From contig CAZZJC010000006.1 of assembly GCA_964654285.1 (NCBI GenBank), forward strand, positions 67,288-131,287: a stretch of 64,000 nucleotides of DNA, given 5' to 3'. Under the pieces are notes generated by a model. That model was not told where the DNA came from. It did not search any database and saw only the letters and a program-made list of their open reading frames with translations. This DNA is from an uncultured Candidatus Kuenenia sp. GTDB taxonomy: Bacteria; Planctomycetota; UBA11346. The translations under genes and the position numbers were made by a program. Below, piece after piece: positions 9,060-45,759 of this stretch; within the stretch, counting starts at the first letter, position 1, and the number at the start of each line of letters is the position of its first letter.

Positions 9060-9188
9060 TCCAACAACGCTTTTACCTAGTGCCACCTGCCTAGATGAAC
9101 CTATCCGACCAATTAGATCGCAGTCTAAACGAATGCGAGGGATTTTCAACTCGTGTCTTTCCTCTGGTGACGTTTCGCTTACGCGATT

Positions 9189-17347: not shown

Positions 17348-17418
17348 GGAAGGCGCGGCACCATATAGGAGCCTTGCGCAGTATCCAGGGGGCTTGAGGT
17401 GGCGGCAACGATCCAAGG

Positions 17419-18531: not shown

Positions 18532-18603
18532 CGTCGCGGGAACCCGGCTGAGGGCGAGGCCTGCATAGGCTGCTATCGGAGCGGGGCAAGATGTCCGTCG
18601 CCG

Positions 18604-19296
18604 GTGCGATCTCCGGCATGGACAGGCCCAAGCAGTCGGGATCATGGCCAACCCATGACAGGACCCAGCCCCGTCGATGAACTCATGCAGCGGGTCGCCG
18701 CCAGGGCCGCCTGGTACCGCCGGGCGGACGCCCGGGATGGTCTGGCCCTGCCGGAACCATTGCCGGCGCTGAGCCGGCCGGAAGCGCCGCGCGCGGTTCC
18801 GCAGCATCCCCGGGTCGGCCTGCATGAATTGCTCTCGCTACGAGGGGGTGATGTCGTTTCATCAGCCTATGAACGCCTGCTCTGGCGCTGCGCGAGTCCC
18901 GAGGAACTGGCCTTCCGGCTCGAACTGTTCCGCAGCGGCCGCCAAGATGTCTTCACCCTGATCCATGATCTTCGCCACAGTCCCGAGGGCATCCGTTGCG
19001 GGGTGCGGATCACCGGCAAAGGTTGGCGAAGGATCATCTTCGCCGTGCTCCGTCTTCCGATGGGCCGGCGCATGTGGCTTGGTTTGCGGGCCTTATTCGC
19101 CCTGCCCCGCTTGCGGGTCGACATCGGAGCCGAGTTGAGGCGTCAGGATCAACGTGTCGAGCGAATCGAGCACGCCCTGGGCGGCTTCGGACCGAAAGCT
19201 GCCCATGATCCGGAAACCGCTCAGGCTCTGCGGTGCCGGCTCGCGGCCCTTGAGCGTAGGGTCGCGGTCCTTGAACAGACGGTAGACCGTCCGTGA
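18604..19296 (+). CDS. DUF4214-like domain protein with a short C-terminal coiled coil (truncated WbdD-like paralog without a catalytic domain)
   Basis: VVSSAYERLLWRCASPEELAFRLELFRSGRQDVFTLIHDLRHSPEG has a DUF4214-like pattern. The C-terminus LRRQDQRVERIEHAL...LRCRLAALERRVAVLEQTV is a predicted coiled coil. An alternative start is at 18655. The stop overlaps the start of the following GT (ATGA). Confidence 0.5.
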   Translation: MRSPAWTGPSSRDHGQPMTGPSPVDELMQRVAARAAWYRRADARDGLALPEPLPALSRPEAPRAVPQHPRVGLHELLSLRGGDVVSSAYERLLWRCASPEELAFRLELFRSGRQDVFTLIHDLRHSPEGIRCGVRITGKGWRRIIFAVLRLPMGRRMWLGLRALFALPRLRVDIGAELRRQDQRVERIEHALGGFGPKAAHDPETAQALRCRLAALERRVAVLEQTVDRP

Positions 19297-21608
19297 TGAA
19301 TAAACGCATCGGCATCGTCGTCCCCTGGTATGGTGAAGCCCTGCGTGGCGGGGCAGAGACCGTGGCGCGGCAAGTGGCGCTCCGACTTGCCGCACGTGGT
19401 CATACGGTCGAAGTCCTCACCACGTGCTGCCGGTCCTTCCTGGACGACTGGGCGGTGAACCACCTGCCAGAGGGTTCGTCCGCCGATGGTCCGATACGGG
19501 TTAGCCGCTTCCCCGTCGATCCGCGCGATGCGCATGCTTTCAACTCGGCCAATGGATTTCTGCTTGGGCTGCCACCGCATCATTTCTCGCCTGGATTGGC
19601 CATTCCAGATCCGGGGTTCGTACCGCACAACCTCCACAGCGCCGCGCTCGTCCGCCATGTGGTTGACCATGCCGCAGAATACCACCGCGTTCTTTTTACG
19701 CCCTATCTGTACGGACCGATCCTGCGTGGTGCCCCGGCGGTCGCCGAACGGGCGGTTCTGCAACCCTGCCTGCATGACGAATCCTACGCCTACCTGGAAC
19801 CCATCCACGCCATGTTCCAGACAGTGCGTCGGTGCGCCTTCCTGTCCCATGGCGAGGCGGACCTTGCCGAGCGGATCTACGGTCCTGCGGTGATCGATGG
19901 TTCCATCGTGGTCGGATCGGGGATCGAAAGCGAAGAGTTAACCACGTCGGTCGCCGCCGGGGCTGATTCCCCGCTCATCCCCGAAGGGCCGTTCCTGCTC
20001 TACCTTGGTCGGCGCGATGCCACCAAGGGGGCCGACCTGCTGATCGACGGTTGGCGCCGCTACCAGGCTGCCCATCCAGGCAATCCGCTGGCATTGGTCC
20101 TGGCCGGACCAGGCCCGAAATCCTACACCGACCATGCGCTGCGGGTGACAGATCTCGGCCTGGTCAATGCCGCAACCAAGGCGGCTTTGCTGCGGGGTTG
20201 CCTTGCCCTGGTCCACCCCAGCCGCAATGAAAGCTACTCGCGCAGTCTGATGGAAGCCTGGCATTGCGGCCGCCCGGCGGTGGTTCATGCGCATTGCCCC
20301 GCCACCGCCGGGGCCATGGCGCGGGCGGGGGCAGGATGGCTTGCTAGTGAAGATCCGGATGCGTGGGCCCAGGCCATCGAGTGCGTCGCGGTATCGACGC
20401 AGGCCGAACGAGATGCGTTTGGTTCCCGTGGCGTCGCCTATGCGGCCGAGCACGCAGACTGGGAACGCTGTATCGACCGCTACGAGCAGCTCCTTGATCT
20501 TGCACCTACAACGGTGGCGACCATCCCGTTGCGAGCACGCCTGGGTCGGATCGATCAGGTCCTGACCGGATTCGACCTCGGAGATGCTATCTCGGAGGAG
20601 GCGCTCACGATCCAGCGTTGGTTGCGATCCCATGGGTGGCTCTCCGACATCGTTGCCCAGTATATCCAGGGACCGTTGCGCAGCGCCTGTGTGCCATGGC
20701 GAACTGGTCTGGTGAACCCTTCAGCCGGTATCATCTACCATCATTCGATCGGATCTGAGATCGCGACCGACGCAATTGCCCACCCCGGGCCCAAAGCCTT
20801 GATCTACCACAATATCACCCCGCCAAAATTTTTCACGGCGTATAAACCGGAACTCGCCAAGATGCTTCAGGATGGGCTCGACCATCTGCCCAGCGCTTGC
20901 GCCAGTTTCCCGCACCTCTGGGCGGATTCGGCCTTCAATGCCCGGGAATTGGCAGTTGCTGCGGGTCGACCCGTGGAGGTGCTGCCCCTGTCGGTGCCGC
21001 CCGCCAAATGGGCGGTGACGCCCGACCAGGGACTTCTCGCCGCCTTGCGCCGGGATCAGGTGCGCAACGTGCTGTTCGTCGGCCGGGTGGCGCCCAACAA
21101 GTGCCAGCATGATCTGGTGCGGATGTTCTGGCATCTGCTGCGGATGGGGGTCAATGCCAGACTCTGCCTGGTCGGACAGGTCTTCCCTGGGGATCCCTAT
21201 GTGGAGGAGGTCCAATCGCTCGCCGCCAATCTCGGCATCGCGAGCCGCGTCTGGATGCCCAACAAGATCACGGTGAGCGAATTGACCGCGGTCTGGAAGG
21301 TGGCGGATGTCTTCGTCAGCCTGAGTGAGCACGAAGGCTTCGGTGTGCCCCTGGTCGAAGCCATGCTGTTCGGCGTTCCCGTCGTCGCGTTTTCATGCAC
21401 CGCGATTGCCGAAACGCTGGGCGGTGTCGGTGTTCTGATGCCCGACAAGGGCGACCTGGTTGAAACTGCAGCAACCGTCGAGACCATCCTGGAAGATGCC
21501 AATCTGAGTGCGGAAATCGTCGCGCGCCAACGCGTGCGACGGATGGATTTCCTGCCTGCGGCAATAGAAAAAAGATATGAAACCTTGATTGGGGGGGCGT
21601 TTCATTGA
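19293..21608 (+). CDS. Two-module GT4 glycosyltransferase, 771 aa (paralog of modules 1 and 2 of the 1160-aa GT)
   Basis: IGIVVPWYGEALRGGAETVARQVALRLAARGHTVEVLTTC (module 1) and ...NVLFVGRVAPNKCQHDLV...EHEGFGVPLVEAMLFGVPVVAFS (module 2). The sequence is colinear with aa 1-~770 of ORF 10052..13534. Confidence 0.85.
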   Translation: MMNKRIGIVVPWYGEALRGGAETVARQVALRLAARGHTVEVLTTCCRSFLDDWAVNHLPEGSSADGPIRVSRFPVDPRDAHAFNSANGFLLGLPPHHFSPGLAIPDPGFVPHNLHSAALVRHVVDHAAEYHRVLFTPYLYGPILRGAPAVAERAVLQPCLHDESYAYLEPIHAMFQTVRRCAFLSHGEADLAERIYGPAVIDGSIVVGSGIESEELTTSVAAGADSPLIPEGPFLLYLGRRDATKGADLLIDGWRRYQAAHPGNPLALVLAGPGPKSYTDHALRVTDLGLVNAATKAALLRGCLALVHPSRNESYSRSLMEAWHCGRPAVVHAHCPATAGAMARAGAGWLASEDPDAWAQAIECVAVSTQAERDAFGSRGVAYAAEHADWERCIDRYEQLLDLAPTTVATIPLRARLGRIDQVLTGFDLGDAISEEALTIQRWLRSHGWLSDIVAQYIQGPLRSACVPWRTGLVNPSAGIIYHHSIGSEIATDAIAHPGPKALIYHNITPPKFFTAYKPELAKMLQDGLDHLPSACASFPHLWADSAFNARELAVAAGRPVEVLPLSVPPAKWAVTPDQGLLAALRRDQVRNVLFVGRVAPNKCQHDLVRMFWHLLRMGVNARLCLVGQVFPGDPYVEEVQSLAANLGIASRVWMPNKITVSELTAVWKVADVFVSLSEHEGFGVPLVEAMLFGVPVVAFSCTAIAETLGGVGVLMPDKGDLVETAATVETILEDANLSAEIVARQRVRRMDFLPAAIEKRYETLIGGAFH

Positions 21609-22777
21609 TTAAGCCGCGCATCGCGATGGTCGTCCAGCGGTATGGCCTCGAGGTCGCCGGCGGGGCCGAGTCTGTCGCGCGCGGGATCGCCCAGAAGATG
21701 GCTTCGGGTCCTTGGGAGGTTGAAGTCCTGACTACCTGCGCGATTCATTACGGCACCTGGAGGAACCATTATCCTTCAGGAAAGCTGCAAGACGGACCAG
21801 TCCTCGTGCGCCGTTTCCCGGTCGCAAGGGAGCGTCAAGAGTCTGCCTTCACCGCGTGGTGCAACCGGATCGGACACCAACCCGAACACGTCAGCCCTGC
21901 CGAAGCGGAAGCATGGATGCAGGCCCAGGGCCCTGATTGTCCGCAACTCACCGACTGGGTCGCCGAGAACGGCCATTGCTATGCTGGCGTGATGGCGTTC
22001 ACCTATCTCTATGCGACCACGGTGAACGCCTTGCGAGCCGCGCCAAAGGGAAGACGGATCCTGGTCCCCTTTGCCCACGATGAGTGGACTTTGCGTCTGC
22101 CGATCTGGCTTGAGTGGTTCGCGAACGTCGATCGCCTCGTGTACAGCACCGAAGAAGAGGAGAGCCTGCTGACATCCCGTTTTCCCGCATTGCGCGGGCG
22201 TGGGAGCGTGGTTGGTCAAGGTTTCACGCCACCGCCCCTTGGCAATGCCGACCGGTTCCGACAGACATTCGGTATCTACCGGGATTTCCTGCTCTACTGC
22301 GGCAGAATCGATCTGAACAAAGGGGTCGACATCCTGCTCGAACAACACGCGCGCTGGCGCAGGGTCGATGCAACCGCCCCCGATCTGGTGCTGATCGGCC
22401 AGGAAATGATCCAATTGCCCGCGCAACCAGGGGTGCATCGACTCGGGTTCGTCACCGACACCGTACGCGTTGATGCCCTGGCTGCGTGCCGGGCTTTGAT
22501 CAATCCCAGTGCCCTGGAGAGTTTAAGCCTCGTATTGCTCGAAGCCTGGTCCGCCGGTCGGCCGACGCTGTGCAATGCCGCCTGCGCGGTGATGGTCGGT
22601 CAGAGCCGGCGCAGTGGCGGGGGACTCTGGTATCGGGATGACGCCGAACTGCGCGCCGCGTGGGATATGATTAGGCATTCCCCACCGGATGCCGCCTCAG
22701 CCGGGCGTTGGGCCCGCGAGCGCTACGCGTGGCCGGCCATCATCGCCGGCTATGCGGCGTCTCTTCCCACGATGTGA
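21605..22777 (+). CDS. Single-module GT4 glycosyltransferase, 390 aa (paralog of module 3 of the 1160-aa GT)
   Basis: IAMVVQRYGLEVAGGAESVARGIAQKMASGPWEVEVLTTC...LLEAWSAGRPTLCNAACAVM. The start overlaps the stop of the upstream GT (ATGA). Confidence 0.85.
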   Translation: MIKPRIAMVVQRYGLEVAGGAESVARGIAQKMASGPWEVEVLTTCAIHYGTWRNHYPSGKLQDGPVLVRRFPVARERQESAFTAWCNRIGHQPEHVSPAEAEAWMQAQGPDCPQLTDWVAENGHCYAGVMAFTYLYATTVNALRAAPKGRRILVPFAHDEWTLRLPIWLEWFANVDRLVYSTEEEESLLTSRFPALRGRGSVVGQGFTPPPLGNADRFRQTFGIYRDFLLYCGRIDLNKGVDILLEQHARWRRVDATAPDLVLIGQEMIQLPAQPGVHRLGFVTDTVRVDALAACRALINPSALESLSLVLLEAWSAGRPTLCNAACAVMVGQSRRSGGGLWYRDDAELRAAWDMIRHSPPDAASAGRWARERYAWPAIIAGYAASLPTM

Positions 22778-23819
22778 TCACGGGGTCGCGGCCGCAGTAC
22801 CATCAGCCCAGACCCGCAGGCCCTGTCGAGCCAGATACAATGGGATGACCGTGAATCCGGCCTGGGTAAGGTCGCGCTGGAGGATCCGCTTGGCCTCGGA
22901 TCGATGCCTGCAGAGCAGGGTCACGGAACCGCCGTCACCACCAGCACCATTGACCTTGCATCCAAGCACGCCATGCGCCTGGGCGATGGTGATCACACGT
23001 TCGAAATCGGTGCCAACCAAGGCAGGATGCAAGGCGCGTTGGGCCTCGGTGTTCTCGTTCCACACTGTACCCAGGCCTGACCAATCTCCACGCATCAGTG
23101 CGTCTTTAGCCCGCAGGGCCAGACTGCGGAAACGTTCGAGGCGGACATCGGCATGAGCTTCAGGTCCGAGGTGCCGGATGACGTCCTGATGCACGGCAGA
23201 CGATTGGTGCGGTTTTCCTATGTAGACCAGCACCATGCGCCGTTCGAGTTCCCACCAGAGAGGGTTGGAAAGTTGGATCGGAGACACCGACGCATCGGGG
23301 AAACGGCTCATCTCGATCAGGTTGACTCCACCGTAGGCGGCACAGAGTTGATCCTGGATGCCGCTTTGAAGGGACAGGTCTTCCGTTTCGATGCGATGCG
23401 CCAACCGCGCGATCTCGTAGGGAGTGAGCGTTCCGGCAGAAAGCCGGTCGAGAGCGGCGATGATCGCCACCGAGACCGAGGCCGAGGTGCCGGTCGAGGC
23501 CCCTGGCGGGACCTCGCAAAAGATGCTGACATCGATGGAGGTGCGTTCCGGGATCTGCAGCCGGCGCAGGGCGCATTCCAGGAGCGGCAGCTTGTCGTAG
23601 GCCCGGTCGAGCTCTTCCATGGTGAAGTGCAGGCCGAAGTTCTCGGCATGGACGGCAACCCGGGGCTGGTCAGGACGTCGTTCCCGGGTGGTAATCTGCA
23701 CCTCGACGTAGGGATAGACCGCAATGTTGCACACCCGGCCGTGACCGGCGAACCAGGTATCGGTCCAGCCTCCTACATCGGCGACGCGGATCGGGGCGAC
23801 AGCGGTGATGGTGGTCATG
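22778..23819 (-). CDS. GHMP-family sugar kinase (HddA-like), copy 1
   Basis: MTTITAVAPIRVADVGGWTDTWF...CEVPPGASTGTSASVSVAIIAAL (GHMP motif II)...KVNGAGGDGGSVTLL (motif III). The second half of the gene has lower GC3. Confidence 0.8.
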
Positions 23820-23963
23820 CGGATCGGTTTCCTTGTTTGGGCGCGCAGCCTGCCGGCAATGGGCCGGTTCGTAAAGAGGCTGTCGGTCAAGGCGGAACTA
23901 CTAGGAAAGCGGCACCCAGGATGAGCCCCTGGCATCGATGTCTGCTGTGCGAAGATCACGGGC

Positions 23964-25361
23964 ATGAACCGTGCGCAGCAATCGGGGATTCTCTGGTGCG
24001 ATATCGGGGATCTCCTCGACTATTTCGCTCTTTATTCTCGTCCATCTGGAATTCAACGGGTAGTGGTAGAGGTTCTGCGGATGGCGCGACTGCGGTGCCT
24101 GCCCGAAGTGCGTTTGTGCCGGATCACCCCGGGTGGACGGCTGCTGCACCTGGACTGGAGTTGGCTTGATCAGGTGTCCAAACCCCCGACACCGCCGGTA
24201 GTAGCCGCCCCAGGCAAACCTCATCTCATTTCGGTGAAATTGGCCACCCACCTGCGCCAATGTGCGAAAAACGCTGTGCATTTGACATTCGCGTGTTTCC
24301 CGGGCGACAGCGGTGATCGATTCCGTCGATGGATCCGCCCCTTGCGCATTCCGCCAGCCCGACGGAAATGGCATGCGTCACTGGCGGCCGCAGGTGTTCC
24401 CTCGCTGCCGTCCGCTAGCGATCTGGTGGTGACCCTTGGTGCCCCCTGGATCCGACCTGGCTGCGAAAAGGATATGGAGCAGGTCCTGGCGCAAAGTGGG
24501 GCACGTTACGCGGTGCTCGTCTACGACTTGATTCCGCTCACCCATCCGCATCTGTTTCCGGATGAGCCGAACCCGTTCATGCCCTGGTTGGATTGGGCCC
24601 TCAAGCGGGCCTGTCTGGTGCAGACGATATCCCATTATTCTGCCCGGACGATTGCAGCCTACCGGGAAAATCGTGGCTTTCCCCTGGTCCCTACCGAGGT
24701 CATCCGCCTCGGCGATCCCCTGCAGGCATCGACGCGTGCCCCCAATCCGCTGCCCCCTCATATCAGGTTCATCCTCTGCGTTGGCACCATCGAAGCCCGC
24801 AAGAACCATCGCTTGCTGCTGGATACCTGGTTGATCCTGCGGGAGCGATTGGGGGAAAGATGCCCGCATCTGGTCTGGGCCGGACGCAAGGGCTGGTTGG
24901 TGGACGACCTGTTCACCCAACTCCGCGCCGCCCGCTGGCTCGAGGGACGCATCATCCATCTTCCCCAGGCCAGTGACGCCGAGTTGGAAACCCTGTACCG
25001 GGATTCGCTGTTCACTGTCTATCCCAGCCTGGCGGAAGGATGGGGCTTGCCGGTCGCTGAAAGTTTGTCCCGGGGCAAGGTGTGTATTGCCTCCAATAGC
25101 ACGTCGATCCCGGAAATCGCAGGCGACTTGCCTTACTTCATTGATCCCTTCGATCCACGTTCTTTGGCCGAACTAATCTGTCGTCTCCTCGACCAACCAG
25201 CCGAACTTGCTGCCCGGGAAGTCCGTATCCGGGAAACGTGGCGGGCACAACCCTGGTCGGTCTGTGCGGATCAGGTGTTGCGAGGTCTGGAAGAAACATT
25301 GGTCCTGAACGAATCCTGCCGATCACAAAGCACTGGTCCGAGCTGGTTGGGTCAGTCTTGA
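23964..25361 (+). CDS. GT4 family glycosyltransferase
   Basis: ...ILCVGTIEARKNHRLLLDTW...YPSLAEGWGLPVAESLSRGKVCIASNSTSIPEIAGD carries the GT4 EX7E motif region. Confidence 0.8.
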   Translation: MNRAQQSGILWCDIGDLLDYFALYSRPSGIQRVVVEVLRMARLRCLPEVRLCRITPGGRLLHLDWSWLDQVSKPPTPPVVAAPGKPHLISVKLATHLRQCAKNAVHLTFACFPGDSGDRFRRWIRPLRIPPARRKWHASLAAAGVPSLPSASDLVVTLGAPWIRPGCEKDMEQVLAQSGARYAVLVYDLIPLTHPHLFPDEPNPFMPWLDWALKRACLVQTISHYSARTIAAYRENRGFPLVPTEVIRLGDPLQASTRAPNPLPPHIRFILCVGTIEARKNHRLLLDTWLILRERLGERCPHLVWAGRKGWLVDDLFTQLRAARWLEGRIIHLPQASDAELETLYRDSLFTVYPSLAEGWGLPVAESLSRGKVCIASNSTSIPEIAGDLPYFIDPFDPRSLAELICRLLDQPAELAAREVRIRETWRAQPWSVCADQVLRGLEETLVLNESCRSQSTGPSWLGQS

Positions 25362-27127
25362 CCGTAAACGCGACGTATCGGTTGCCAATCCGACCAGTCC
25401 CAGATCCGATCCGGACGGGAATCAACCGAGACTGGGGTGCTATTCCATTCGTGCGGACCAAAGGACCTGACTGCCCGCCAATGCACCACCGCCCCAGCGG
25501 CCACTAACAAGCCGATGAACAGGAGAACGGGTTTTTGCCAGGCTGAATGGCATTTGAGGATCTTGATGATGAAAGGCACGCATAGCAAGGCGATGCTGAC
25601 GTATAGAGGTGCTTGTAAGCGGGGTCCGAAACTCCACCCACCCCACCAGTGTGGAAAGCAGGCAATGAGTATGGTTCCGACCACGACGTGCGCCGTAACT
25701 CCAATCCACAACCAGCGTCGATCCCGGTCGTAGACGATTCCTACTACCGCCCCCGGGATCGCGGCCAACATGACCGGATTGAAAATGAAAAAGCCGCGGT
25801 TGGGACTGAACCACTGGCCGAGGATGGCCTGCGGGAATACGGACGGATCAATGCGATTCCCACCATAATAGGGTGGGAATATCGTGCCGAATGCCGTCCA
25901 GGACCATGTGATAAAAAAAACGAGGACTAGCCCACATCCAAGCGCGAACCCAACCAACGGTGCGATGCGCCAACGATTGCCCAGAATCAGAAAGAGCAGC
26001 GCCACGGGTCCAATTAGCGCACCGTCTGGTCGGCACACGAAGGCAAATCCGACCAGCAGACCGGCCGCCAACGCGAGCAGCGGACCTCTGGCAGCGAGGG
26101 CCGCCCACCACGCAGCGGTCAGGCACGCTAGCATGGTGGAACTCGACCAGATAGAAAGCCCGTGTATACTGAGATGGGACGTAGCGAGTGTGAATACGGA
26201 TGCGCATATCGTTGCCGTCATCAAACCAGTTCCGACCTCCAATAGAAGGCCAAGGAATAGGGTTGCGGTCAAGGCGGTCATCACTCGGGAGGCCCATACG
26301 GCCACCGTTTGATCATCGAACCCCAAGATGTTCTGCACTGCCACGAAAGGGAGCAGCAGGCAGGAAGTTCCTGGTGGGAAGTAGTTGTATGGATTCCCGG
26401 TCGCGCCTAGGCGTATCCCGTAACTTTGCACAGTTACGATCTGCTCCTGCCACGCTGATAGGTCCAACGTCCTCTGGTAGAGGATTGCCTGAGCACCAGG
26501 AACATTCCACATATTATCACCAGTTCCAGCCAAGTTTTGGTGCCCGGTACCCAACCCAACCAGTACCAGGATGACAAGGAAGAAACCTGCCAACATGCGA
26601 AATCGCCCCGACGGGGTCAAAGCCACCAAGGCGATGGAAAGCACCCCCAAGCCGGCCAGCAGCCAACTAACTCCGTTAGCGGTCCCTGATCGGACCGCGA
26701 TGCGAAGTTGGTCAATGACTAACTCGGGTGTAGAAAGCTGGGAAAAAACACGCAATTCTACTTGCGCTGGAACCTTGGGGCCGGTCTGAAATGCGCGTAT
26801 TGCGTGCTTAGCCGATGGTGGGAATACCACCTCCTGAGCACCATCATCGTATCCCGGGGCCATGAGATCTATATGGATTTGTACAGGGGTGCGAGTTGAA
26901 AGCCACACGGTATAGGTAGACGAAGGTAGGGGCTTAATCACCCGCCACGTGAGCGACGGCAACCGGACTGTTCCATTGGCATCGACGGGAATCGACGACT
27001 GCCAAGCAGCTGGACTTTCCACCAACACGGTGTCGCCAATGCCCAGTCGGATGGAAATTCCCCAGGCGAGCAACAATATTCCTATGGCAACACCAAGCAA
27101 CCGGAAGAGAAACCAGCGGTTGATCAT
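25352..27127 (-). CDS. Large polytopic membrane protein (one N-terminal TM helix, ~170-aa periplasmic domain, then ≥10 TM helices); candidate GT-C-type lipid-linked-sugar glycosyltransferase
   Basis: MINRWFLFRLLGVAIGILLLAWG is a signal-anchor. A soluble β-rich segment follows, then a long hydrophobic region. The start overlaps the cysC stop (ATGA). GC is lower than in flanking DNA. No family was recognised from sequence alone. Confidence 0.55.
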   Translation of the reverse strand: MINRWFLFRLLGVAIGILLLAWGISIRLGIGDTVLVESPAAWQSSIPVDANGTVRLPSLTWRVIKPLPSSTYTVWLSTRTPVQIHIDLMAPGYDDGAQEVVFPPSAKHAIRAFQTGPKVPAQVELRVFSQLSTPELVIDQLRIAVRSGTANGVSWLLAGLGVLSIALVALTPSGRFRMLAGFFLVILVLVGLGTGHQNLAGTGDNMWNVPGAQAILYQRTLDLSAWQEQIVTVQSYGIRLGATGNPYNYFPPGTSCLLLPFVAVQNILGFDDQTVAVWASRVMTALTATLFLGLLLEVGTGLMTATICASVFTLATSHLSIHGLSIWSSSTMLACLTAAWWAALAARGPLLALAAGLLVGFAFVCRPDGALIGPVALLFLILGNRWRIAPLVGFALGCGLVLVFFITWSWTAFGTIFPPYYGGNRIDPSVFPQAILGQWFSPNRGFFIFNPVMLAAIPGAVVGIVYDRDRRWLWIGVTAHVVVGTILIACFPHWWGGWSFGPRLQAPLYVSIALLCVPFIIKILKCHSAWQKPVLLFIGLLVAAGAVVHWRAVRSFGPHEWNSTPVSVDSRPDRIWDWSDWQPIRRVYGQD

Positions 27128-28579: not shown

Positions 28580-29614
28580 TCAGCCCGCGGCGTTGCCGTC
28601 AGTCCAGACGCGCAGGCCCTGGCGGGCAAGGTAGAGCGGGATGACGGTGAAGCCGGCCTGGACGAGGTCGCGCAGCAGGGCGCGCTTGGCGTCGGAACGC
28701 GGGCCGCACAGCAGGGTGACGGAACCGCCGTCGCCGCCGGCGCCGTTGACCTTGCAGCCCAGGATGCTGTGGGCGGTGGCGATCGCGATGACCTTCTCGA
28801 AATCGGGGCCGACCAGGGCGGGATGCAGGGCGCGCTGGGCCTCGGTGTTCTCGTTCCAGACCCGGCCCAGTCCGGCCCAGTCGCCGCGCAGCAGGGTGTC
28901 CTTGGCGCGCAGGGCGAGGCTGCGGATACGTTCCAGGCGCGGATCCGCGTGCGCATCGGGGCCGAGGTGGCGGATGACCTCCTGGTGCACGGCCGATGAC
29001 TGGTGCGGCCGGCCGATATAGACCAGCGCCATGCGCCGTTCGAGTTCCCACCACAGGGCATTGGGCAGGTGGAGCGGCGACACCGACGCGTCCGGGAAGC
29101 GGGTCATCTCGATCAGGTTGACGCCGCCGTACGCGGCGCAGAGCTGGTCCTGGATGCCGCTCTGCAGGGAAAGATCCTCGGCCTCGATGCGGTGCGCCAG
29201 GCGGGCGATCTCGTAGGCGGTGAGGGTGCCCCCGGACAGGCGGTCGAGCGCGGCGATGATCGCGACCGATACCGAGGCCGAGGTGCCGGTGGACGCGCCC
29301 GGCGGCACCTCGCAGAAGAGGCTGACATCGATCGAGATGCGCTCCGGGACCTGGAGCCGGCGCAGGGCGCATTCCAGCAGCGGCAGCTTGTCGTAGGCGC
29401 GGTCGAGCTCCTCCATCGAGAAGCGCAGGCCGAAGTTCTCGGCGTGCACCGCGACCCGGGGCTGGTCGGGGCGGCGTTCGCGCGTGGTGATCTGGACTTC
29501 GACGTAGGGATAGACCGCGATGTTGCAGACCCGGCCATGACCGGCGAACCAGGTGTCGGTCCAGCCGCCGACGTCGGCGACGCGGATCGGGGCGACGGCG
29601 GTGATGGTGGTCAT
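28580..29614 (-). CDS. GHMP-family sugar kinase (HddA-like), copy 2 (about 89% aa identity to copy 1)
   Basis: MTTITAVAPIRVADVGGWTDTWF...CEVPPGASTGTSASVSVAIIAAL...KVNGAGGDGGSVTLL. GC is high throughout. It is embedded in the listed 487-aa ORF 28580..30043, whose N-terminal extension is spurious. Confidence 0.8.
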   Translation of the reverse strand: MTTITAVAPIRVADVGGWTDTWFAGHGRVCNIAVYPYVEVQITTRERRPDQPRVAVHAENFGLRFSMEELDRAYDKLPLLECALRRLQVPERISIDVSLFCEVPPGASTGTSASVSVAIIAALDRLSGGTLTAYEIARLAHRIEAEDLSLQSGIQDQLCAAYGGVNLIEMTRFPDASVSPLHLPNALWWELERRMALVYIGRPHQSSAVHQEVIRHLGPDAHADPRLERIRSLALRAKDTLLRGDWAGLGRVWNENTEAQRALHPALVGPDFEKVIAIATAHSILGCKVNGAGGDGGSVTLLCGPRSDAKRALLRDLVQAGFTVIPLYLARQGLRVWTDGNAAG

Positions 29615-30924: not shown

Positions 30925-32366
30925 CCTCTGCCGCGATCGGCACCGACTTCATCGACGATGCGTATCTCGAAGGCCTGCTCGCTGAGACCCCGGCGGATCC
31001 CGGGCACGTGCGCGAGATCATCGCGAAAAGCCTGGCGAAGCAGGCGCTGACGGTCGAGGAGACCGCCGTGCTGCTGACCATCCGCGACCCCGCCCTCAAG
31101 GCCGAGATCCAGGAAGGGTCGCGCCGGCTGAAGCGCCAGGTCTACGGCAACCGCATCGTGCTCTTCGCGCCGCTCTACGTCGGCAATCTGTGCGTGAACG
31201 ATTGCACCTACTGCGGCTTCAAGCGCTCGAACCACGACGCGGTGCGCACCACGCTCGACCGCGACGCCCTGGTCAGCCAGGTGAAGGCCCTGGAGGACGC
31301 CGGGCACAAGCGCCTGATCCTGGTCTTCGGCGAGCATCCGCGCTACGACGCCGCATTCATCGCCGACAGCGTGCGCACGGTGTACGGGGTCACCAGCGGC
31401 GCGACCGGCGAGATCCGCCGGGTGAACGTCAACGCAGCGCCGTTCGACATCGACGGCTTCCGCACCGTGAAGGCGGCCGGCATCGGCACCTGGCAGGTCT
31501 TCCAGGAGACCTACCACCACGCGACCTACGCCGCGATGCATTCCGCCAGGCAGGACCGGCCGGCGCCCGGTGTGAATTCGGCGCAACGGCCCAAAAGCGA
31601 TTACCTCTGGCGCCTGTCCGCCTTCGACCGCGCGATGCAGGCGGGCATCGACGATGTCGGCCTGGGCGCGCTGTTCGGCCTGTACGACTGGCGCTTCGAG
31701 GTGCTCGGCCTCGTCCGCCATGCCCTGCACCTGCAGGAATGCTTCGGCGTCGGGCCGCACACCATCAGCTTCCCGCGCCTGCAACCGGCCTCGGGGGTCA
31801 CCCTCGACCCGCGCTGGGCGGTCTGCGACGACGACTTCCGCCACCTCGTCGCGGTACTGCGCCTCGCGGTGCCGTACACCGGGCTGATCCTGACCGCACG
31901 CGAACCGGTGGCGATCCGCAATGAACTGATGGAATTCGGGGTGAGCCAGATCGATGGCGGCACCCGCATCGGCCTCGGCGCCTACACCGCCGGCGACGAC
32001 GGGCAGCACCTCGAACGCGAGCAGTTCCGCATCGGCGACAGCCGCAGCCTGGACCAGGTCGTGCAGGAACTCATCGCCCGCCACGAACTGCCGAGCTTCT
32101 GCACCGCCTGCTACCGCCTCGGCCGCACCGGCGAGCATTTCATGGAGTTCGCCATCCCGGGCTTCATCAAGCGCTTCTGCACCCCGAACGCGCTCACCAC
32201 CTTGCAGGAATACCTCGTCGACTACGCCCCGCCGGACACTCGCGCCCAGGGCCAGGCCGTGATCGCGGCGGAACTGGCCCGCATGGAAGACGGCGACCTC
32301 AAGCGCGAACTGGTCGCGCGGCTTGAACGCATCCGCACCACGGCGGCGCGCGACCTGTATTTCTGA
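30921..32366 (+). CDS. hydG: [FeFe]-hydrogenase maturase HydG (radical SAM tyrosine lyase)
   Basis: YVGNLCVNDCTYCGFKRSN is a ThiH/HydG N-terminal radical-SAM motif. The C-terminus carries SFCTACYRLGRTGEHFMEFAIPGFIKRFC, a CX2CX22C motif that distinguishes HydG from ThiH. It is embedded in the listed 785-aa ORF, and the start is taken at MTSAAIGTDF. Confidence 0.8.
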   Translation: MTSAAIGTDFIDDAYLEGLLAETPADPGHVREIIAKSLAKQALTVEETAVLLTIRDPALKAEIQEGSRRLKRQVYGNRIVLFAPLYVGNLCVNDCTYCGFKRSNHDAVRTTLDRDALVSQVKALEDAGHKRLILVFGEHPRYDAAFIADSVRTVYGVTSGATGEIRRVNVNAAPFDIDGFRTVKAAGIGTWQVFQETYHHATYAAMHSARQDRPAPGVNSAQRPKSDYLWRLSAFDRAMQAGIDDVGLGALFGLYDWRFEVLGLVRHALHLQECFGVGPHTISFPRLQPASGVTLDPRWAVCDDDFRHLVAVLRLAVPYTGLILTAREPVAIRNELMEFGVSQIDGGTRIGLGAYTAGDDGQHLEREQFRIGDSRSLDQVVQELIARHELPSFCTACYRLGRTGEHFMEFAIPGFIKRFCTPNALTTLQEYLVDYAPPDTRAQGQAVIAAELARMEDGDLKRELVARLERIRTTAARDLYF

Positions 32367-32613
32367 GCCCAGCGGGGCTTGCGCCCCAGCCCGACTGCGC
32401 CGCTCTGCGGCTGGCATGCTGCGCATGTCCCCGCTGCGCGGGGATCGACCTGTGGCGACGGTGGCTGCGCCACCGAGTTCCGCTGCGCGGAACCAAGCCC
32501 GTCCCCGCTCGCTCGCTTCGCTCCTCGGGGGATTGCTCCTCGCGGGGCGCTGCCCCGCTACGCCCCGCCAGGGGCCCTCGCCCCTGGACCCGCACGGACC
32601 CAACCAGTGCGAA

Positions 32614-32636
32614 AGTTTGACTTCCTGAGTCAAACT
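32614..32636. promoter_or_regulatory. Perfect 8-bp inverted repeat (agtttgac-N7-gtcaaact), candidate MarR operator
   Basis: agtttgacttcctgagtcaaact lies about 115 bp upstream of the MarR-family gene that starts at 32751. Confidence 0.4.
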
Positions 32637-32750
32637 ACCTGCATTCAAGAACCCTAGCGCCGCCTCCGGCCTGCGGGCTGCGCAGCACGTGTCGAAGGTT
32701 GCCGTTTCGTTGTCTGGACGATATCCGTTGCAACGACTATTTAGCTGCCC

Positions 32751-33248
32751 ATGCCCGGGCTGCTGCAATCCGAACTCCGCCTGACGCGGCCGCTGCCCAG
32801 CGCCGAGGTCGAGGGCTACCTCAACCTCATGCGGACGGCCGAACTGCTGCGGCGGCAGGTGACCGAACTGCTGCGGTCCTCCGACCTGACCCCGGCGCAG
32901 TACAACGTCCTGCGCATCCTGGCTGGCGCGGGAGCGCGGGGGTGCTCGTGTGCGACCATGGCCGAACGGATGGTCCACTTCGATCCCGACGTGACCCGGC
33001 TGGTCGACCGCCTGGCGGCGCGCGGCCTGGCGCAGCGCGACCGCGATCCCGGCGATCGCCGCCTGGTCATCACCCGCATCACGGCCGAAGGTTCCGCGCT
33101 GATCGAGCGCCTGGCGCGACCGATCGCCGACCTCCACCGCCGCCAGTTCGCCGCCCTGGGCGGCGAACGCCTGCATATGCTCATCGTCGCGCTGGAAGAC
33201 CTCCGGCGCGATCGTGAATCCCAACCCCAACCCATGGAGAAACCATGA
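32751..33248 (+). CDS. MarR-family transcriptional regulator
   Basis: LTPAQYNVLRILAGAG...MAERMVHFDPDVTRLVDRLAARGLAQRDRDPGDRRLVITRITAEG is a winged-helix MarR core. Confidence 0.8.
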   Translation: MPGLLQSELRLTRPLPSAEVEGYLNLMRTAELLRRQVTELLRSSDLTPAQYNVLRILAGAGARGCSCATMAERMVHFDPDVTRLVDRLAARGLAQRDRDPGDRRLVITRITAEGSALIERLARPIADLHRRQFAALGGERLHMLIVALEDLRRDRESQPQPMEKP

Positions 33249-33832: not shown

Positions 33833-33868
33833 GGACTCGCGCCAATACATCTGGCGCGTTCGGGTGCA

Positions 33869-33980
33869 GTAGCGCCGGCTTCAGCCGGCTCGGACGGCGG
33901 GCTTCAGCCCGCCAGCCAAGGCAGTAATAACGCTGGGGCGACTGAAGTCGCCCCTCCTTGCCGGCTGAAGCCGGCGCTAC
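33869..33980. repeat. Perfect 21-bp inverted repeat (gtagcgccggcttcagccggc ... gccggctgaagccggcgctac) separated by 70 bp, with internal smaller hairpins
   Basis: Read directly from the sequence. Both arms and the spacer contain GC stems with TTCAG/CTGAA loops (gccggcTTCAgccggc, ggcgggcTTCAGcccgcc, ggcgacTGAAgtcgcc). Confidence 0.85.
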
Positions 33981-34050
33981 GGCAAACCTGTTGAAAGCGT
34001 CAGTTATCAATGCGCGAGCCTTTAGTCGAACTCTGACGCAGTCGCTTGCG

Positions 34051-34146
34051 CCTGGGACCGCCGGTTTCCAACCGGCCGAAAGCCGTGAGATGCTGATCCG
34101 AGGGCTTTTCCTGGGTTCCTGCCGGTTGAAAACCGGTGGTCCCAGG
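34051..34146. repeat. 26-bp imperfect inverted repeat (cctgggaccgccggtttccaaccggc ... gccggttgaaaaccggtggtcccagg) separated by ~45 bp
   Basis: Read directly from the sequence; 24 of 26 positions are complementary. Each arm contains a ccgg-loop-ccgg mini-hairpin. Confidence 0.8.
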
Positions 34147-42994: not shown

Positions 42995-43065
42995 ACCTGC
43001 GATCAGCGCCTGTTTCCCGTGCGGGCGGCCATCCCGGCCGCCCGCCGTCGTTGGTGGAACCGTCC

Positions 43066-44355
43066 ATGCCGAGAACGCCCATCCTTGCCTGCGTGGCGCT
43101 GGCCGCCGTCCTCGCGGCCGCAGCGGGTGAACCGCCGCCCGTCGCGCCCGCCCAGGATCCGACCGTGAGCGGACCCGAGAACCGCATCGACCGCGAGATC
43201 CGCCGGGTCAACCAGACCACCATCACCTTCGTCGAGGTCTTCGTCCGCGCGCTCGAACGCCAGCGCGACCTCGAGGAGCGCGGCCGGCCGCTGCCCGCCC
43301 GCGCCGACATGCCGCGCTTCCTCCTCGAATGCCTGGAGGAGCTCACCGACGAGGAGCTGATCATCCAGAAGGCGACCGAGCTCGGGATCAAGCCCGACAG
43401 CGAACGCATCAAGCGCGAAGTGCTGGAGGACGCCAGGCGCATCGGCCGCGGGATCGACCAGCGTTCGCTCGTCATGGAGCGCAAGCGGCGCGAACGCACG
43501 ACCACCATCAACTACGTGCTGGGCTGGTTCGAGCAGCGCACCTCGCTCGTCACGCCCGAGGCGATGATCGACGAATACCGGCGCTCCAGCGCGGAATTCA
43601 AGCGGCCGGCGCGGGCGCACGTGCTGCAGATCTGCGTCGCCCCCGCCGGGGCGGCCGAACGCGCCGCCGTCGCGCGCGACCAGGCGGATCTGCTCAAGCG
43701 CGCCCAGCGCGCCGGCGTCGGGGCCGAGGTCAAGGCCCTCGCCGACGCCTGCCTCGCGGAATACCTCGAGGCCGCACCGGCGCGGCAGGCGGAACTGCTC
43801 GACCGCCTGACCGCCGGACTGGCCGACCTCGCCGGCCGCGAGGGCCTGTCGGCCGATGATGCCGCCCTGGCGGCCACGGCCCGCAAGCTGCGCGAGGCCG
43901 CCGCCAACCTGCGCGATGAGGCCCAGACCCGCGCCGCCCTCGAAGCGCTGCGCCAGCGTCTCGACGGCCTGGAACCCGCCGCGCGCGAGGCGGAGTTCCG
44001 CGCCGCCGCCAAGGCCATGTCGAGCGGGCCGAACGCCGCCGAGGGCGGCGACCTCGGCGCCACCGTCGAACCCGGCACGTATTCCGCCGAGTTCGACGCC
44101 CAGGCCTTCTCCATCCCGGTCGGCCGGGTCTCGCCGGTCTTCACCGCGCGCGGCCTGCTCTGCCTGATCCTGGTGCGCGAGCGCCGCGAGGCGCGCGTGC
44201 TCTCCTTCGACGAGGTGTCCGGGGGGCTGGATCGCAGCCTGACCCAGGCGCGGCGCGAGGCGCTGCGCACCGCGATCGTGCGCGTGCTGCGCTCCCGCGC
44301 GCAGATCAGCGACCTCGATCTCAGCAGCCTGCGCGAACTGCCGCCGCCCCGTTAG
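43066..44355 (+). CDS. SurA/PpiD-like periplasmic chaperone with a parvulin-type PPIase domain
   Basis: A signal peptide is followed by a SurA_N-like helical region, then GGDLGATVEPGTYSAEFDAQAFSIPVGRVSPVFTARGLLCLILV, a parvulin rotamase motif. Confidence 0.7.
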   Translation: MPRTPILACVALAAVLAAAAGEPPPVAPAQDPTVSGPENRIDREIRRVNQTTITFVEVFVRALERQRDLEERGRPLPARADMPRFLLECLEELTDEELIIQKATELGIKPDSERIKREVLEDARRIGRGIDQRSLVMERKRRERTTTINYVLGWFEQRTSLVTPEAMIDEYRRSSAEFKRPARAHVLQICVAPAGAAERAAVARDQADLLKRAQRAGVGAEVKALADACLAEYLEAAPARQAELLDRLTAGLADLAGREGLSADDAALAATARKLREAAANLRDEAQTRAALEALRQRLDGLEPAAREAEFRAAAKAMSSGPNAAEGGDLGATVEPGTYSAEFDAQAFSIPVGRVSPVFTARGLLCLILVRERREARVLSFDEVSGGLDRSLTQARREALRTAIVRVLRSRAQISDLDLSSLRELPPPR

Positions 44356-44522
44356 CAGCGGGGTTCCACCCTGCCTGTTTTTTCAGCGGGGTTCCACCCC
44401 GCCACGCCCCGCCAGGGCTCTGCCCTGGACCCGGATTGCCCGGAAGGGCTGTTAGCCGCGGGGTTCCACCCCGCCACGCCCCGCCAGGGCTCTGCCCTGG
44501 ACCCGGATTGCCCGGAAGGGCT
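44351..44522. repeat. Tandem direct repeat, 72-bp unit, two full copies plus one diverged partial copy, internally palindromic
   Basis: The unit is gttagccgcggggttccaccccgccacgccccgccagggctctgccctggacccggattgcccggaagggct. Identical copies lie at 44386-44450 and 44458-44522, with a partial copy at 44351-44385. It contains the hairpin cagggcTCTgccctg. Confidence 0.9.
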
Positions 44523-44526
44523 CACC

Positions 44527-44772
44527 GCGCGTCCTTGCGTTTGCCACGCGTTTGCCCAATCGGGCGGGGGGGCGCTGCGCTGCCCCGCCGGGGTCTGATG
44601 TCAGTTTGTTCGGCCTGCTGCGCGTCCTTGCGTTTGCTACGCGGTTGCCCGTTCGGGCGGGGGCGCTGCGCTGCCCCGCCGGGGTTGGATGTCAGTTTGT
44701 TCGGCCTGCCGCGCGTCCTTGCGTTTGCCACGCGGTTGCCCGTTCGGGCGGGGGGCGCTGCGCTGCCCCGCC
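44527..44772. repeat. Tandem direct repeat, ~92-bp unit × 2.7 copies
   Basis: The unit is gcgcgtccttgcgtttgccacgcggttgcccgttcgggcgggggcgctgcgctgccccgccggggtctgatgtcagtttgttcggcctgc(t/c). Copies start at 44527, 44620 and 44711, the last truncated. There are a few SNPs between copies. The cgcg...cgcg and G-rich stems are palindromic. Confidence 0.9.
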
Positions 44773-44790
44773 TACGTCGATATCTGATTT

Positions 44791-45759
44791 TCAGGCAGGA
44801 CGCGCTGTGGCGAGGCAGTCGCGGATGAGGGTGTCGAGACCGCGTTCGGGCGTCCAGCCGGTCAGGCGCGCGATCTTCGCCAGGGCGGGGAGACGGCGGC
44901 GCATGTCCTCGAAACCGCCGCCCGGGTAGGCGCTGTGGTAGGGCACCAGGCGCACCTCGGCGCGGCTGCCGGCGAGCGCGAGCACGCGGTGCGCGAGGGC
45001 GAGGATGCTGATCTCCTCGGCGCCGCCGATGTTCACCACCTCGCCCACCGCCGCCGGCGTGTCGACCAGGCGGCGCACCGCCGCGACCGCGTCGGCGACA
45101 TGGCAGAAGGTGCGGGTCTGCTGGCCGTCGCCGTGCACGTCGAGCGGCTTCCCGGCCGCCGCAGCGGCGCAGAAGCGCGGCAGCACCATGCCGTAGGCGC
45201 CGCTCTGGCGCGGGCCGGCGACGTTGAAGAAGCGACCGACGACGACCGGCAGGCCGCGTTCGCGGTGCCAGGCGAGGGCGAGGAACTCGTCGATCAGCTT
45301 CGACGCGGCGTAGCTCCAGCGCTGCAGCCGGCTCGCGCCCAGGACGCAGTCGTCGTCCTCGTTGAACGGCACCCGATCCTGCTTGCCGTAGGCCTCGCTG
45401 GTCGAGGCGATGAAGACCGGCGCGCGGCCGTGCACCTCGGCGGCGCGCAGGACGACCTCGGTGCCGCGCACGTTGGTGACGATCGAGGCGACCTGGCGCT
45501 CCAGGATCCGGCGCACGCCCACCGCCGCCGCGAGGTGGATGATGCGGTCGCAGCCGCGGCAGGCCTCGTCCATCGCCAGCTCATCGCACACGGAACCATG
45601 CACGATGGTCAGGCGCGGCTCGCCCTGGTGCTGCGCCAGGTTGGCGAGCGACCCGGTCGAGCAGTCATCGAGCACCACCGCCTCGTGCCCGTCCGCAAGA
45701 AGCGCGTCGACCAGGTGCGAGCCGATGAACCCGGCTCCGCCGGTGACGAGGTAGCGCAT
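44791..45759 (-). CDS. NAD-dependent epimerase/dehydratase (UDP-sugar epimerase or decarboxylase type SDR)
   Basis: MRYLVTGGAGFIGSHLVDALL is the Rossmann fold; ...YAASKLIDE is the YxxxK motif. The listed 414-aa ORF has a spurious N-terminal extension. Confidence 0.85.
   Translation of the reverse strand: MRYLVTGGAGFIGSHLVDALLADGHEAVVLDDCSTGSLANLAQHQGEPRLTIVHGSVCDELAMDEACRGCDRIIHLAAAVGVRRILERQVASIVTNVRGTEVVLRAAEVHGRAPVFIASTSEAYGKQDRVPFNEDDDCVLGASRLQRWSYAASKLIDEFLALAWHRERGLPVVVGRFFNVAGPRQSGAYGMVLPRFCAAAAAGKPLDVHGDGQQTRTFCHVADAVAAVRRLVDTPAAVGEVVNIGGAEEISILALAHRVLALAGSRAEVRLVPYHSAYPGGGFEDMRRRLPALAKIARLTGWTPERGLDTLIRDCLATARPA

Follow-up and report, generated by a model that had tools for sequence, protein, structure and literature searches.

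Hairpin arrays in two intergenic spacers

We analyzed a 64,000-nt stretch of DNA from an uncultured Candidatus Kuenenia sp. (GenBank assembly GCA_964654285.1, contig CAZZJC010000006.1, positions 67,288 to 131,287 of the forward strand; hereafter the window), in which two distant intergenic spacers carry short GC-rich hairpins. One spacer separates hydG from marR, and the other lies between the gene of a SurA-like peptidyl-prolyl isomerase (PPIase) and an epimerase gene. It is likely, in our judgment, that the GC-rich palindromic DNA repeats of both spacers belong to a single non-coding and non-autonomous family, which behaves like repetitive extragenic palindromes (REPs), bacterial interspersed mosaic elements (BIMEs) and REP doublets forming hairpins (REPINs).

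In the hydG-marR spacer (32367-32750), about 290 nt directly behind the hydG stop codon (32367-32654) form ten short hairpins in a row. The element is co-oriented with hydG, whose TGA stop lies 4 nt upstream of it, and the gene order is hydE, hydG, the element, marR and yceI, with marR overlapping the yceI start. The features of this spacer are listed below; numbers preceded by L denote fetched loci, which were compared with the window by blastn, and MAG stands for metagenome-assembled genome.

30939..32366, + strand: hydG ([FeFe]-hydrogenase maturase), Pfam Radical_SAM and BATS, homologues named HydG
32367..32654, + strand: full composite hairpin element, long subfamily, 87% identity over 289 nt to L050:6346-6632(-)
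32371..32595, + strand: core nine-hairpin element, common to several Planctomycetota MAGs, 78-81% identity to L085, L024, L062 and L041
32374-32387, + strand: H1, GGGGCttgcGCCCC
32399-32411, + strand: H2, core-element hairpin
32415-32427, + strand: H3, core-element hairpin
32428-32444, + strand: H4, TCCCCGCtgcGCGGGGA
32459-32475, + strand: H5, CGGTGGCtgcGCCACCG
32477-32493, + strand: H6, GTTCCGCtgcGCGGAAC
32502-32532, + strand: H7, core-element hairpin
32542-32558, + strand: H8, GCGGGGCgctGCCCCGC
32568-32587, + strand: H9, CCAGGGGCcctcGCCCCTGG
32538..32593, + strand: core module of the hydG locus, composed of H8, linker TACGCCCCG, H9 and ACCC; 56.4 bits, E=5.6e-8 with covariance model R1 (see below)
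32614..32636, + strand: perfect 9-bp palindrome in the 3ʹ extension of the element, AGTTTGACT-tcctg-AGTCAAACT, as a whole AGTTTGACTtcctgAGTCAAACT
32751..33248, + strand: marR, downstream gene, Pfam MarR/MarR_2

A first-pass annotation, made from the letters of the window, had described a string of hairpins between genes that it took for hydG and marR. The hairpins that it quoted were all found in their places, and its naming of both genes agreed with the Pfam domains and, for hydG, with the names of homologues. The named HydG homologues belong to Phycisphaerae/Planctomycetes MAGs, which makes the source of the window a Phycisphaerae-like planctomycete. The segment 32367-32660 folded better than dinucleotide shuffles on both strands (z of -4.2 for the + strand and -3.7 for the - strand). 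Six perfect hairpins (stem of at least 7 bp, loop of 3-8 nt) occurred in 294 nt, against 0.35 expected from the density in the window (P=2e-6), and an intrinsic-terminator scan of 32200-32900 returned no sites. We considered the palindrome at 32614-32636 as a possible operator of marR; however, it is kept in the L050 copy, where there is no marR, and therefore it belongs to the element. The four C-runs may have the potential to form G-quadruplex or i-motif structures.

In the second spacer, the repeat array occupies the entire distance between the stop codons of the PPIase and epimerase genes:

43051..44355, + strand: PPIase (SurA-like) gene, Pfam Rotamase, TAG stop inside the heptamer GTTAGCA
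44351..44385, + strand: degenerate first copy of hairpin 1, then T6, GCGGGGTTCCACCCTGC, direct repeat family D19
44386..44522, + strand: 72-bp unit, 1.9 copies, 100% identity, Tandem Repeats Finder (TRF) score 274
44525..44772, + strand: 91-bp unit, 2.7 copies, 92% identity, TRF score 431, repeat families D3, D4 and D20
44791..45759, - strand: NAD-dependent epimerase/dehydratase, Pfam Epimerase, convergent with the PPIase gene

Both tandem arrays had been noticed in the first-pass annotation, and their copy numbers and identities are those given above. Every copy of the 72-bp unit consists of one core module (44382-44434 and 44454-44506) and a GCCC-GGAA-GGGC hairpin, and the copies of the 91-bp unit terminate in a stem of the hairpin-1 type, GGCGGGG..CCCCGCC (44567-44589, 44658-44680 and 44750-44772). 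The annotation had also traced the core gcggggcgctgccccgc into the longer unit, which it measured as about 92 bp. The hairpin type is indeed the same, but the match is not exact: the unit carries GGGGGCGCTGCGCTGCCCCGCC, in which 5 nt of that hairpin are duplicated internally, and L029, among other related copies, has the unduplicated GGGGCGCTGCCCCGCC at the matching position. The 72- and 91-bp units combine into one composite of about 150 nt in related genomes (89-91% identity to L097, L101 and L029). The only intrinsic-terminator-like site of both spacers, 44358-44374 with T6 (CTGTTTTTTC), is formed by the degenerate first hairpin alone.

The heptamer GTTAGCA (44351-44357), which holds the TAG stop of the PPIase gene, is tandemly duplicated together with hairpin 1, and thus the end of the gene is part of the repeat unit. 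The same arrangement of heptamer and stop is found in a close relative (L116, reverse strand, about 5100-5110). We rejected an integron attC site as an explanation for GTTAGCA, which mismatches the consensus GTTRRRY, has no inverse core site and is flanked by housekeeping genes. A CRISPR array was rejected as well, since the hairpins of the hydG spacer differ from one another and are separated by irregular gaps of 0-35 nt, and the 72- and 91-bp tandem units have no unique spacers.

A two-hairpin module shared by both spacers

The similarity between 32561-32592 and the 72-bp unit, proposed in the first-pass annotation, proved to be real and longer than described: 32541-32592 and 44457-44507 are identical in 42 of 54 aligned columns, the upstream hairpin included. 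The shared part is a module of about 50 nt, with (G)CGGGGY-NNN-RCCCCG(C) as hairpin 1, (YA)CGCCCCG as a C-rich linker, CCAGGG(G)-loop-(C)CCCTGG as hairpin 2, and ACCC as the tail. Between the two loci hairpin 1 changes from GCGGGGC-gct-GCCCCGC to GCGGGGT-tcc-ACCCCGC, with a compensatory replacement of C:G by T:A, and the second stems differ by one inserted G:C pair.

The window was scanned with R1, a covariance model derived from 100 distinct modules of other loci. The model recognized exactly three sites, all on the + strand (32538-32593, 56.4 bits; 44382-44434, 56.7 bits; 44454-44506, 55.7 bits), and the next-best score was 17.6 bits. The three modules are single and do not form inverted pairs. 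Inside the window itself the short cores were only marginally enriched. Rfam gave no matches at the gathering score in the whole window, and at E<=10 the two spacers yielded only chance-level matches of 19 bits or less; a scan for tRNA and tmRNA found none.

The spacer after yceI (33838-34140) holds a second, different hairpin family (GCCGGCttcaGCCGGC, GGCGGGCttcaGCCCGCC, GGGGCGACtgaaGTCGCCCC and GCCGGTTtccAACCGGC). Its loops are CTTCAG/CTGAAG and TTCC/GAAA, it is not matched by the R1 model, and it includes a 43-nt inverted repeat with 84% complementarity (33865-33907 / 33942-33984).

Covariation of the stems and the type of loops

We examined the stems in two alignments, one of nine Planctomycetota copies of the nine-hairpin element (A1) and the other of the 100 modules (A2). 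In A1, 91.6% of the cells paired, compared with 39-52% when the partners were slid, and both sides had changed in 17 of 56 pairs. The sequence of H3-H6 varied freely while pairing was kept, and the 3ʹ part of about 100 nt (H7-H9) was nearly invariant. In A2, 96.3% of the cells paired and 89 cells had changed on both sides. At the stem positions of the 100 modules that lay outside the constraint of our search pattern, we counted 840 Watson-Crick pairs, 2 G.T and 5 A.C. An RNA under structural selection would tolerate G.U but not A.C. Since G.T and A.C were equally rare here and both strands folded equally well, complementarity appears to be maintained in DNA; the template-switch correction of quasipalindromes is an established process with that effect.

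The loops of the small hairpins were also distinctive. On the + strand we found 26 TNC triloops, no GNA and 16 others (n=42), while the background of the rest of the window comprised 9 TNC, 7 GNA and 114 others (n=130). Loops of the C-GNA-G / C-TNC-G type form compact, nuclease-resistant DNA mini-hairpins, described in the telomere palindromes of Streptomyces and the single-strand promoters of phage N4 (PMC5449611). In the module, hairpin-1 loops are KCY, with a closing pair that covaries between C:G, T:A and A:T; hairpin-2 loops range from 3 to 10 nt and have no conserved sequence. A U-tract is absent from the module and from the nine-hairpin element.

Dispersal and turnover in Planctomycetota genomes

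The L050 copy of the long element is located between convergent hflX and fmt rather than between hydG and marR, and in the blastn comparison with the window the flanking genes of the element-matching loci did not align at the DNA level. At least five copies of the hydG-marR element are present in the MAG VAR_61_metabat_487_sub (L033, L062, L066 with two, and L080). The 72 + 91 composite occurs at five or more loci of the MAG CAMCMZ01 (L029, L038, L095, L097 and L101; 89-91% identity), and its 5ʹ hairpin is often partly duplicated in tandem. In L038 (5937-6000), L095 (7434-7490) and L097 (reverse, about 4390-4450) the composites open with two or three such duplications, each of which stops within or just past the hairpin-1 loop, e.g. 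CTTTGACCACGGGGCTCCG three times, a pattern suggestive of slippage or of abortive copying at the hairpin. CAMCMZ01 is labeled 'Candidatus Kuenenia stuttgartiensis AH-24oct19-121' (L029, L038, L050, L095, L097 and L101); its contigs are high-GC, their elements are of the Phycisphaerae type, and the label looks wrong.

Short-read contigs (Logan) of the source organism stop 34 nt past the hydG stop and begin again about 145 nt before marR, and a short-read contig of a close relative stops 115 nt past the epimerase stop codon, i.e. the contigs break at the edges of the elements, as expected for unresolved repeats. The relative (ENA ERZ27280257) encodes a HydG 89% identical and a 322-aa epimerase orthologue 98% identical to the proteins of the window. 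At its hydG site (L113), 119 nt of unrelated sequence (7411-7529) separate hydG from yceI, and the module, the element and marR are all lacking. Its PPIase/epimerase spacer measures 639 nt, versus 435 nt in the window, and contains two full composites about 330 nt apart and a perfect array of 2.4 copies of a 30-nt unit, GTTAGCA-hairpin 1-ACGCC. The arrays thus change far faster than the neighboring genes, much of it by local tandem duplication.

The copies have a preferred position. Among the matches listed, 57 had a co-oriented gene as their nearest upstream neighbor and 20 an opposed one, with a median distance of 25 nt from its stop codon; this count takes in a syntenic Streptomyces group. 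Ten of 15 Planctomycetota-type copies start 0-8 nt behind a co-oriented stop codon.

Distribution of the module across bacteria

One genome per species was scanned with the pattern CGCCCCGCCAGGG-N(3-10)-CCCTGGACCC, which returned at least 108 loci. Grouped by record title, they were distributed as follows:

Streptomyces/Kitasatospora: at least 22 loci
Acetobacteraceae and other Alphaproteobacteria: at least 18 loci
Planctomycetota-type: at least 18 loci
Desulfovibrionaceae and relatives: at least 16 loci
Myxococcota-type: at least 14 loci
Clostridia: at least 7 loci
Magnetococcales: at least 4 loci
Acidobacteriota, Chloroflexota and unclassified: the remaining loci among the matches listed

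A reversed control pattern of the same composition and symmetry, run on a different and larger metagenome collection, matched 2 loci. Hairpin 1, which was not part of the pattern, was present directly upstream in about 90% of the matches listed. Because a hairpin that had not been searched for accompanies most matches and the reversed pattern found only two loci, the recurrence points to homology and not to convergence. The shared core is thus not specific to one genome and occurs across several phyla, which goes beyond the view of the first-pass annotation.

Isolate genomes with the module belong to Actinomycetota, Desulfobacterota (Fundidesulfovibrio agrisoli), Bacillota (Acutalibacter caecimuris) and Acetobacteraceae (Lichenicola cladoniae, from the plasmid search). 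The taxonomic labels of MAGs are not all trustworthy. For example, the label of 'Acidobacteriota bins.47' (JBKICO01; L043, L074, L089, L091 and L096; about 1.3x coverage) looks wrong, and its contigs share a Fundidesulfovibrio-type module and the same downstream terminator. Linker subfamilies follow lineages, with TA in Planctomycetota, AA in the Myxococcota-type loci and neither elsewhere.

The arrangement of the module differs among the groups. An Acetobacteraceae MAG has an element of about 170 nt with the module inverted at both ends and the termini GGAAGG...CCTTCC; L003, L037 and L086 are near-perfect palindromes of 200-260 nt, and inverted doublets and long module palindromes were seen in Acetobacteraceae, Desulfovibrionaceae, Magnetococcales and Eubacteriales loci. 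In Acutalibacter the module is repeated in tandem 101-nt units, and in the Clostridia loci (54-57% GC) it forms a GC-rich island. In Desulfovibrionaceae a single module is located between the stop codon and a separate canonical terminator and, owing to this location, is presumably transcribed. In at least 11 species of Streptomyces/Kitasatospora it lies in the orthologous ispF-cysS spacer (L004, L011, L016 at 4316-4367, L025, L036, L046, L060, L061, L063, L100 and L107). A conserved tract, CGGCCTATGCCCACCCACCACCCGACTCGG, is found 3ʹ of the ispF-cysS module, and the two together may represent a conserved feature of cysS, either regulatory or RNA-based.

The module was absent from 2.9 million viral contigs and from 5,426 Escherichia coli genomes. 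Plasmids gave only three weak matches to the module and none to the 230-nt element. Module k-mers retrieved only unrelated eukaryotic and viral papers from the searchable literature, which is not proof of novelty. We also considered a leader peptide or small open reading frame (ORF), since a purine run resembling a Shine-Dalgarno sequence and an ATG precede the Desulfovibrionaceae and Clostridia modules. The ATG is missing in other lineages, the frame relative to the hairpin varies, the loop lengths of hairpin 2 are not multiples of three, and the purine run of Acetobacteraceae is the outer end of the inverted-repeat element; the candidate was rejected.

Comparison with known repeat systems

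The first-pass annotation had proposed a dispersed, occasionally tandemized family of REPs or miniature inverted-repeat transposable elements (MITEs). Dispersal and tandem growth were supported by the recurrence in other Planctomycetota MAGs, with five or more loci per MAG, by the contig breaks and by the differing sites of the relative. The label fits less well, because the GT[AG]G foot of a canonical REP is absent and no REP-associated tyrosine transposase (RAYT) was found, and for a MITE neither a target-site duplication nor a transposase was seen.

As in the REP/BIME/REPIN-RAYT systems, the family consists of short, GC-rich, extragenic palindromes, non-autonomous and with many dispersed copies near the 3ʹ ends of ORFs, and it includes singletons, inverted doublets and clusters, the inverted dimers occurring in other lineages and none in the window. 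According to PMC3733652, REPs are found fewer than 20 bp away from the 3ʹ ends of ORFs, between unidirectional or convergent genes, and sometimes supply a TAG stop, which agrees with the positions found here. The PPIase stop codon inside the repeat is a parallel to this, and a similar effect on RNA might be expected of the 3ʹ stem-loops by analogy. Canonical REPs are defined by the tetranucleotide GT[AG]G on the 5ʹ side of the hairpin foot (PMC6006769), whereas our family lacks this foot, its stems are perfect rather than bulged, and no RAYT was found. REPIN populations are described as lineage-specific and vertically inherited; in contrast, the core sequence of our family is common to several phyla, with none in the 5,426 E. 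coli genomes.

The family also resembles the CGTC REPs of Di Nocera et al. (2013). According to that paper (PMC3733652), these span multiple phyla, with Alphaproteobacteria as the main hosts and deeper phyla represented as well, have no dedicated transposase, lie mostly downstream of ORFs and form inverted dimers; they are defined by an unpaired CGTC (TGTC/CCTC) tag, an 8-9-bp stem that opens with two A:T pairs, a 4-5-nt loop and a CCA tail. Measured against this description, the module differs in having no tag, G:C-rich stems of 6-8 bp that do not start with two A:T pairs, loops mostly of 3 nt and the tail ACCC. One hairpin of the hydG element, H6, (C/T)GTG-TTCCGC-tgc-GCGGAA-CCA, does resemble the published description (a tag-like start, two A:T pairs and CCA), a likeness to that description which is only a lead. 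The family is therefore an orphan REP-like one, which falls under neither the canonical GT[AG]G definition nor that of the CGTC REPs.

With MITEs, Correia elements, ERIC, RPE and RIME the family shares small size, a non-coding nature, proximity to genes and, sometimes, long inverted termini that fold into long hairpins. It differs from them in showing no target-site duplication or related transposase, in its modular build of small hairpins and in its cross-phylum spread. The dense short palindromes and the GNA/TNC triloops closed by C:G recall the Streptomyces telomere palindromes, phage N4 promoters and d(GCGNAGC) (PMC5449611). However, the telomere palindromes and N4 promoters are located at the ends of linear replicons or in phage promoters and have Tap/Tpg and the N4 virion RNA polymerase (vRNAP) as partners, while ours lie at internal, dispersed sites behind genes; what they have in common is the chemistry of the hairpins, not homology. 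Like intrinsic terminators, the elements are GC-rich stem-loops directly behind genes, but the module and the nine-hairpin element have no U-tract.

Interpretation

Unrelated gene contexts, multiple copies in related genomes and sites that are present, absent or rearranged between close relatives show that the family is dispersed. Locally it is amplified as perfect tandem duplications, and its stems are kept as strict Watson-Crick palindromes with DNA-type triloops, which favors a palindrome at the DNA level over a structured RNA. Each lineage builds its composites from the module and further small hairpins; the window genome has two, the element of about 225-290 nt with nine or ten hairpins and the composite of about 150 nt seen as the 72- and 91-bp units.

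In the mechanism that we propose, the elements would fold and propagate as hairpins on single-stranded DNA. Dispersal might be carried out by a trans-acting, hairpin-specific enzyme, modeled here on the HUH/Y1 type, and local growth could result from slippage or template switching. As the copies are parked behind stop codons in the sense direction, they would be co-transcribed with the upstream gene and become very stable 3ʹ-UTR stem-loops. In E. coli, REPs are known to act as 3ʹ stem-loops on exonucleases and termination. By analogy, the stem-loops of our family may block 3ʹ-5ʹ exonucleases, or insulate or terminate transcripts.

Several results weigh against such a family of mobile DNA repeats. 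No mobilizing enzyme was found near the copies. All-against-all clustering of 1,067 ORFs near copies revealed no protein family common across phyla, and the only clusters were the syntenic ispD, ispF and cysS of Streptomyces; pairs of copies 2-3 kb apart bracket ordinary genes (prfB, a cNMP-binding protein or a CydD-like ABC transporter). A tblastn search with approximate queries for IS200 TnpA and E. coli RayT, run on about 0.9 Mb of fetched loci and the window, found no real Y1/RAYT homologue, and its weak matches were spurious (V-ATPase D and PyrD). A target-site duplication was not visible at the element boundaries examined. The GT[AG]G foot was absent from both strands and both hairpin feet of the 100 aligned modules, where hairpin 1 has a variable or purine-rich foot on its 5ʹ side, hairpin 2 is preceded by CGCCCCG, and the reverse strand has GGGT. 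The Streptomyces ispF-cysS copy indicates long-term stability and not mobility. A clean empty site was not obtained, the hydG comparison being confounded by the absence of marR in the relative, and the 3:1 orientation bias with the position behind stops is also compatible with selection at the RNA level.

The last point leads to an alternative that we regard as unlikely, namely a structured cis-acting RNA (a 3ʹ-UTR stabilizer, the precursor of a small RNA, or a terminator or attenuator) kept for the fold of the transcript. The sense orientation behind stops, the strong covariation of the stems, the transcribed Desulfovibrionaceae module ahead of its canonical terminator and the C-rich linkers on the sense strand would all agree with it. 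Selection on RNA should, however, have left G.U pairs, and they are not enriched (2 G.T against 5 A.C in about 850 pairs, in spite of the 89 cells changed on both sides); nor does it sit well with two strands that fold equally well, with modules in head-to-head and tail-to-tail doublets, with unrelated upstream genes, with the lack of an Rfam family even at E<=10, or with the unconserved hairpin-2 loop of 3 to 10 nt.

We find it still less probable that the elements are classical MITEs, in which a DDE-type (or Tn3-like) transposon would have the module as its terminal inverted repeat, and the short elements would be deletion derivatives moved by cut and paste. The Acetobacteraceae element with its inverted terminal modules and the long palindromes L003, L037 and L086 have such an appearance, but no boundary examined carries a duplicated target and no transposase lies between or beside copies. 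Besides, whether the module faces outward or inward depends on the lineage, and both the window and most copies from Planctomycetota have it single and unpaired. The least credible explanation, which we consider very improbable, is that GC-rich genomes have independently evolved G4/C4 hairpins as U-less terminators and that the loci are not homologous. Hairpins behind genes are abundant in high-GC genomes, and the marginal enrichment of the short cores within the window would suit it. This explanation is already contradicted by the reversed control (2 loci in the larger collection, versus at least 108), by hairpin 1, which the pattern did not specify and which is retained with its spacing and KCY loops in about 90% of the matches listed, by the elements of 225-290 nt that align end to end between genomes, and by the covariance scores of 55-57 bits in the window, where other sites reach at most 17.6; the module is, moreover, a GC-rich island also in the Clostridia loci of 54-57% GC.

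The REP-like DNA repeat therefore remains our preferred interpretation. Going further, we tentatively suggest, with somewhat more doubt than confidence, that the double-hairpin module of about 50 nt is an unrecognized, near-invariant DNA element, present in at least four phyla on the evidence of isolates (Streptomyces/Kitasatospora, Fundidesulfovibrio, Acutalibacter and Lichenicola) and in up to about nine by MAG labels, and a universal building block of lineage-specific REP/REPIN/MITE-like composites. REP-type repeats are regarded as lineage-specific populations linked to a resident RAYT or, in the case of the CGTC REPs, as orphans, whereas nearly every base of this core is retained from Streptomyces to Planctomycetota, Desulfovibrionaceae and Clostridia. 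If so, it would represent a third, untagged REP superfamily and would imply either a widespread enzyme that processes DNA hairpins specifically or the frequent passage of a 50-nt non-coding sequence between phyla. It would also offer a searchable handle on how orphan palindromic repeats spread (by which enzyme and on which strand) and cross phyla, and on how mRNA 3ʹ ends are shaped in high-GC bacteria without U-tract terminators. In practical terms, the elements break short-read assemblies at gene ends and yield spurious small ORFs.

Other features of the window

Apart from the two spacers, we noticed a low-GC island at 8000-27000, with 50-62% GC versus about 70% elsewhere, which may be acquired DNA or a composite element. 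In it, 52-nt inverted repeats (12005-12056 / 20786-20837, 77%) bracket 8.7 kb. A 300-nt paralogous repeat is present at 22791-23090 and 28587-28886 (76%).

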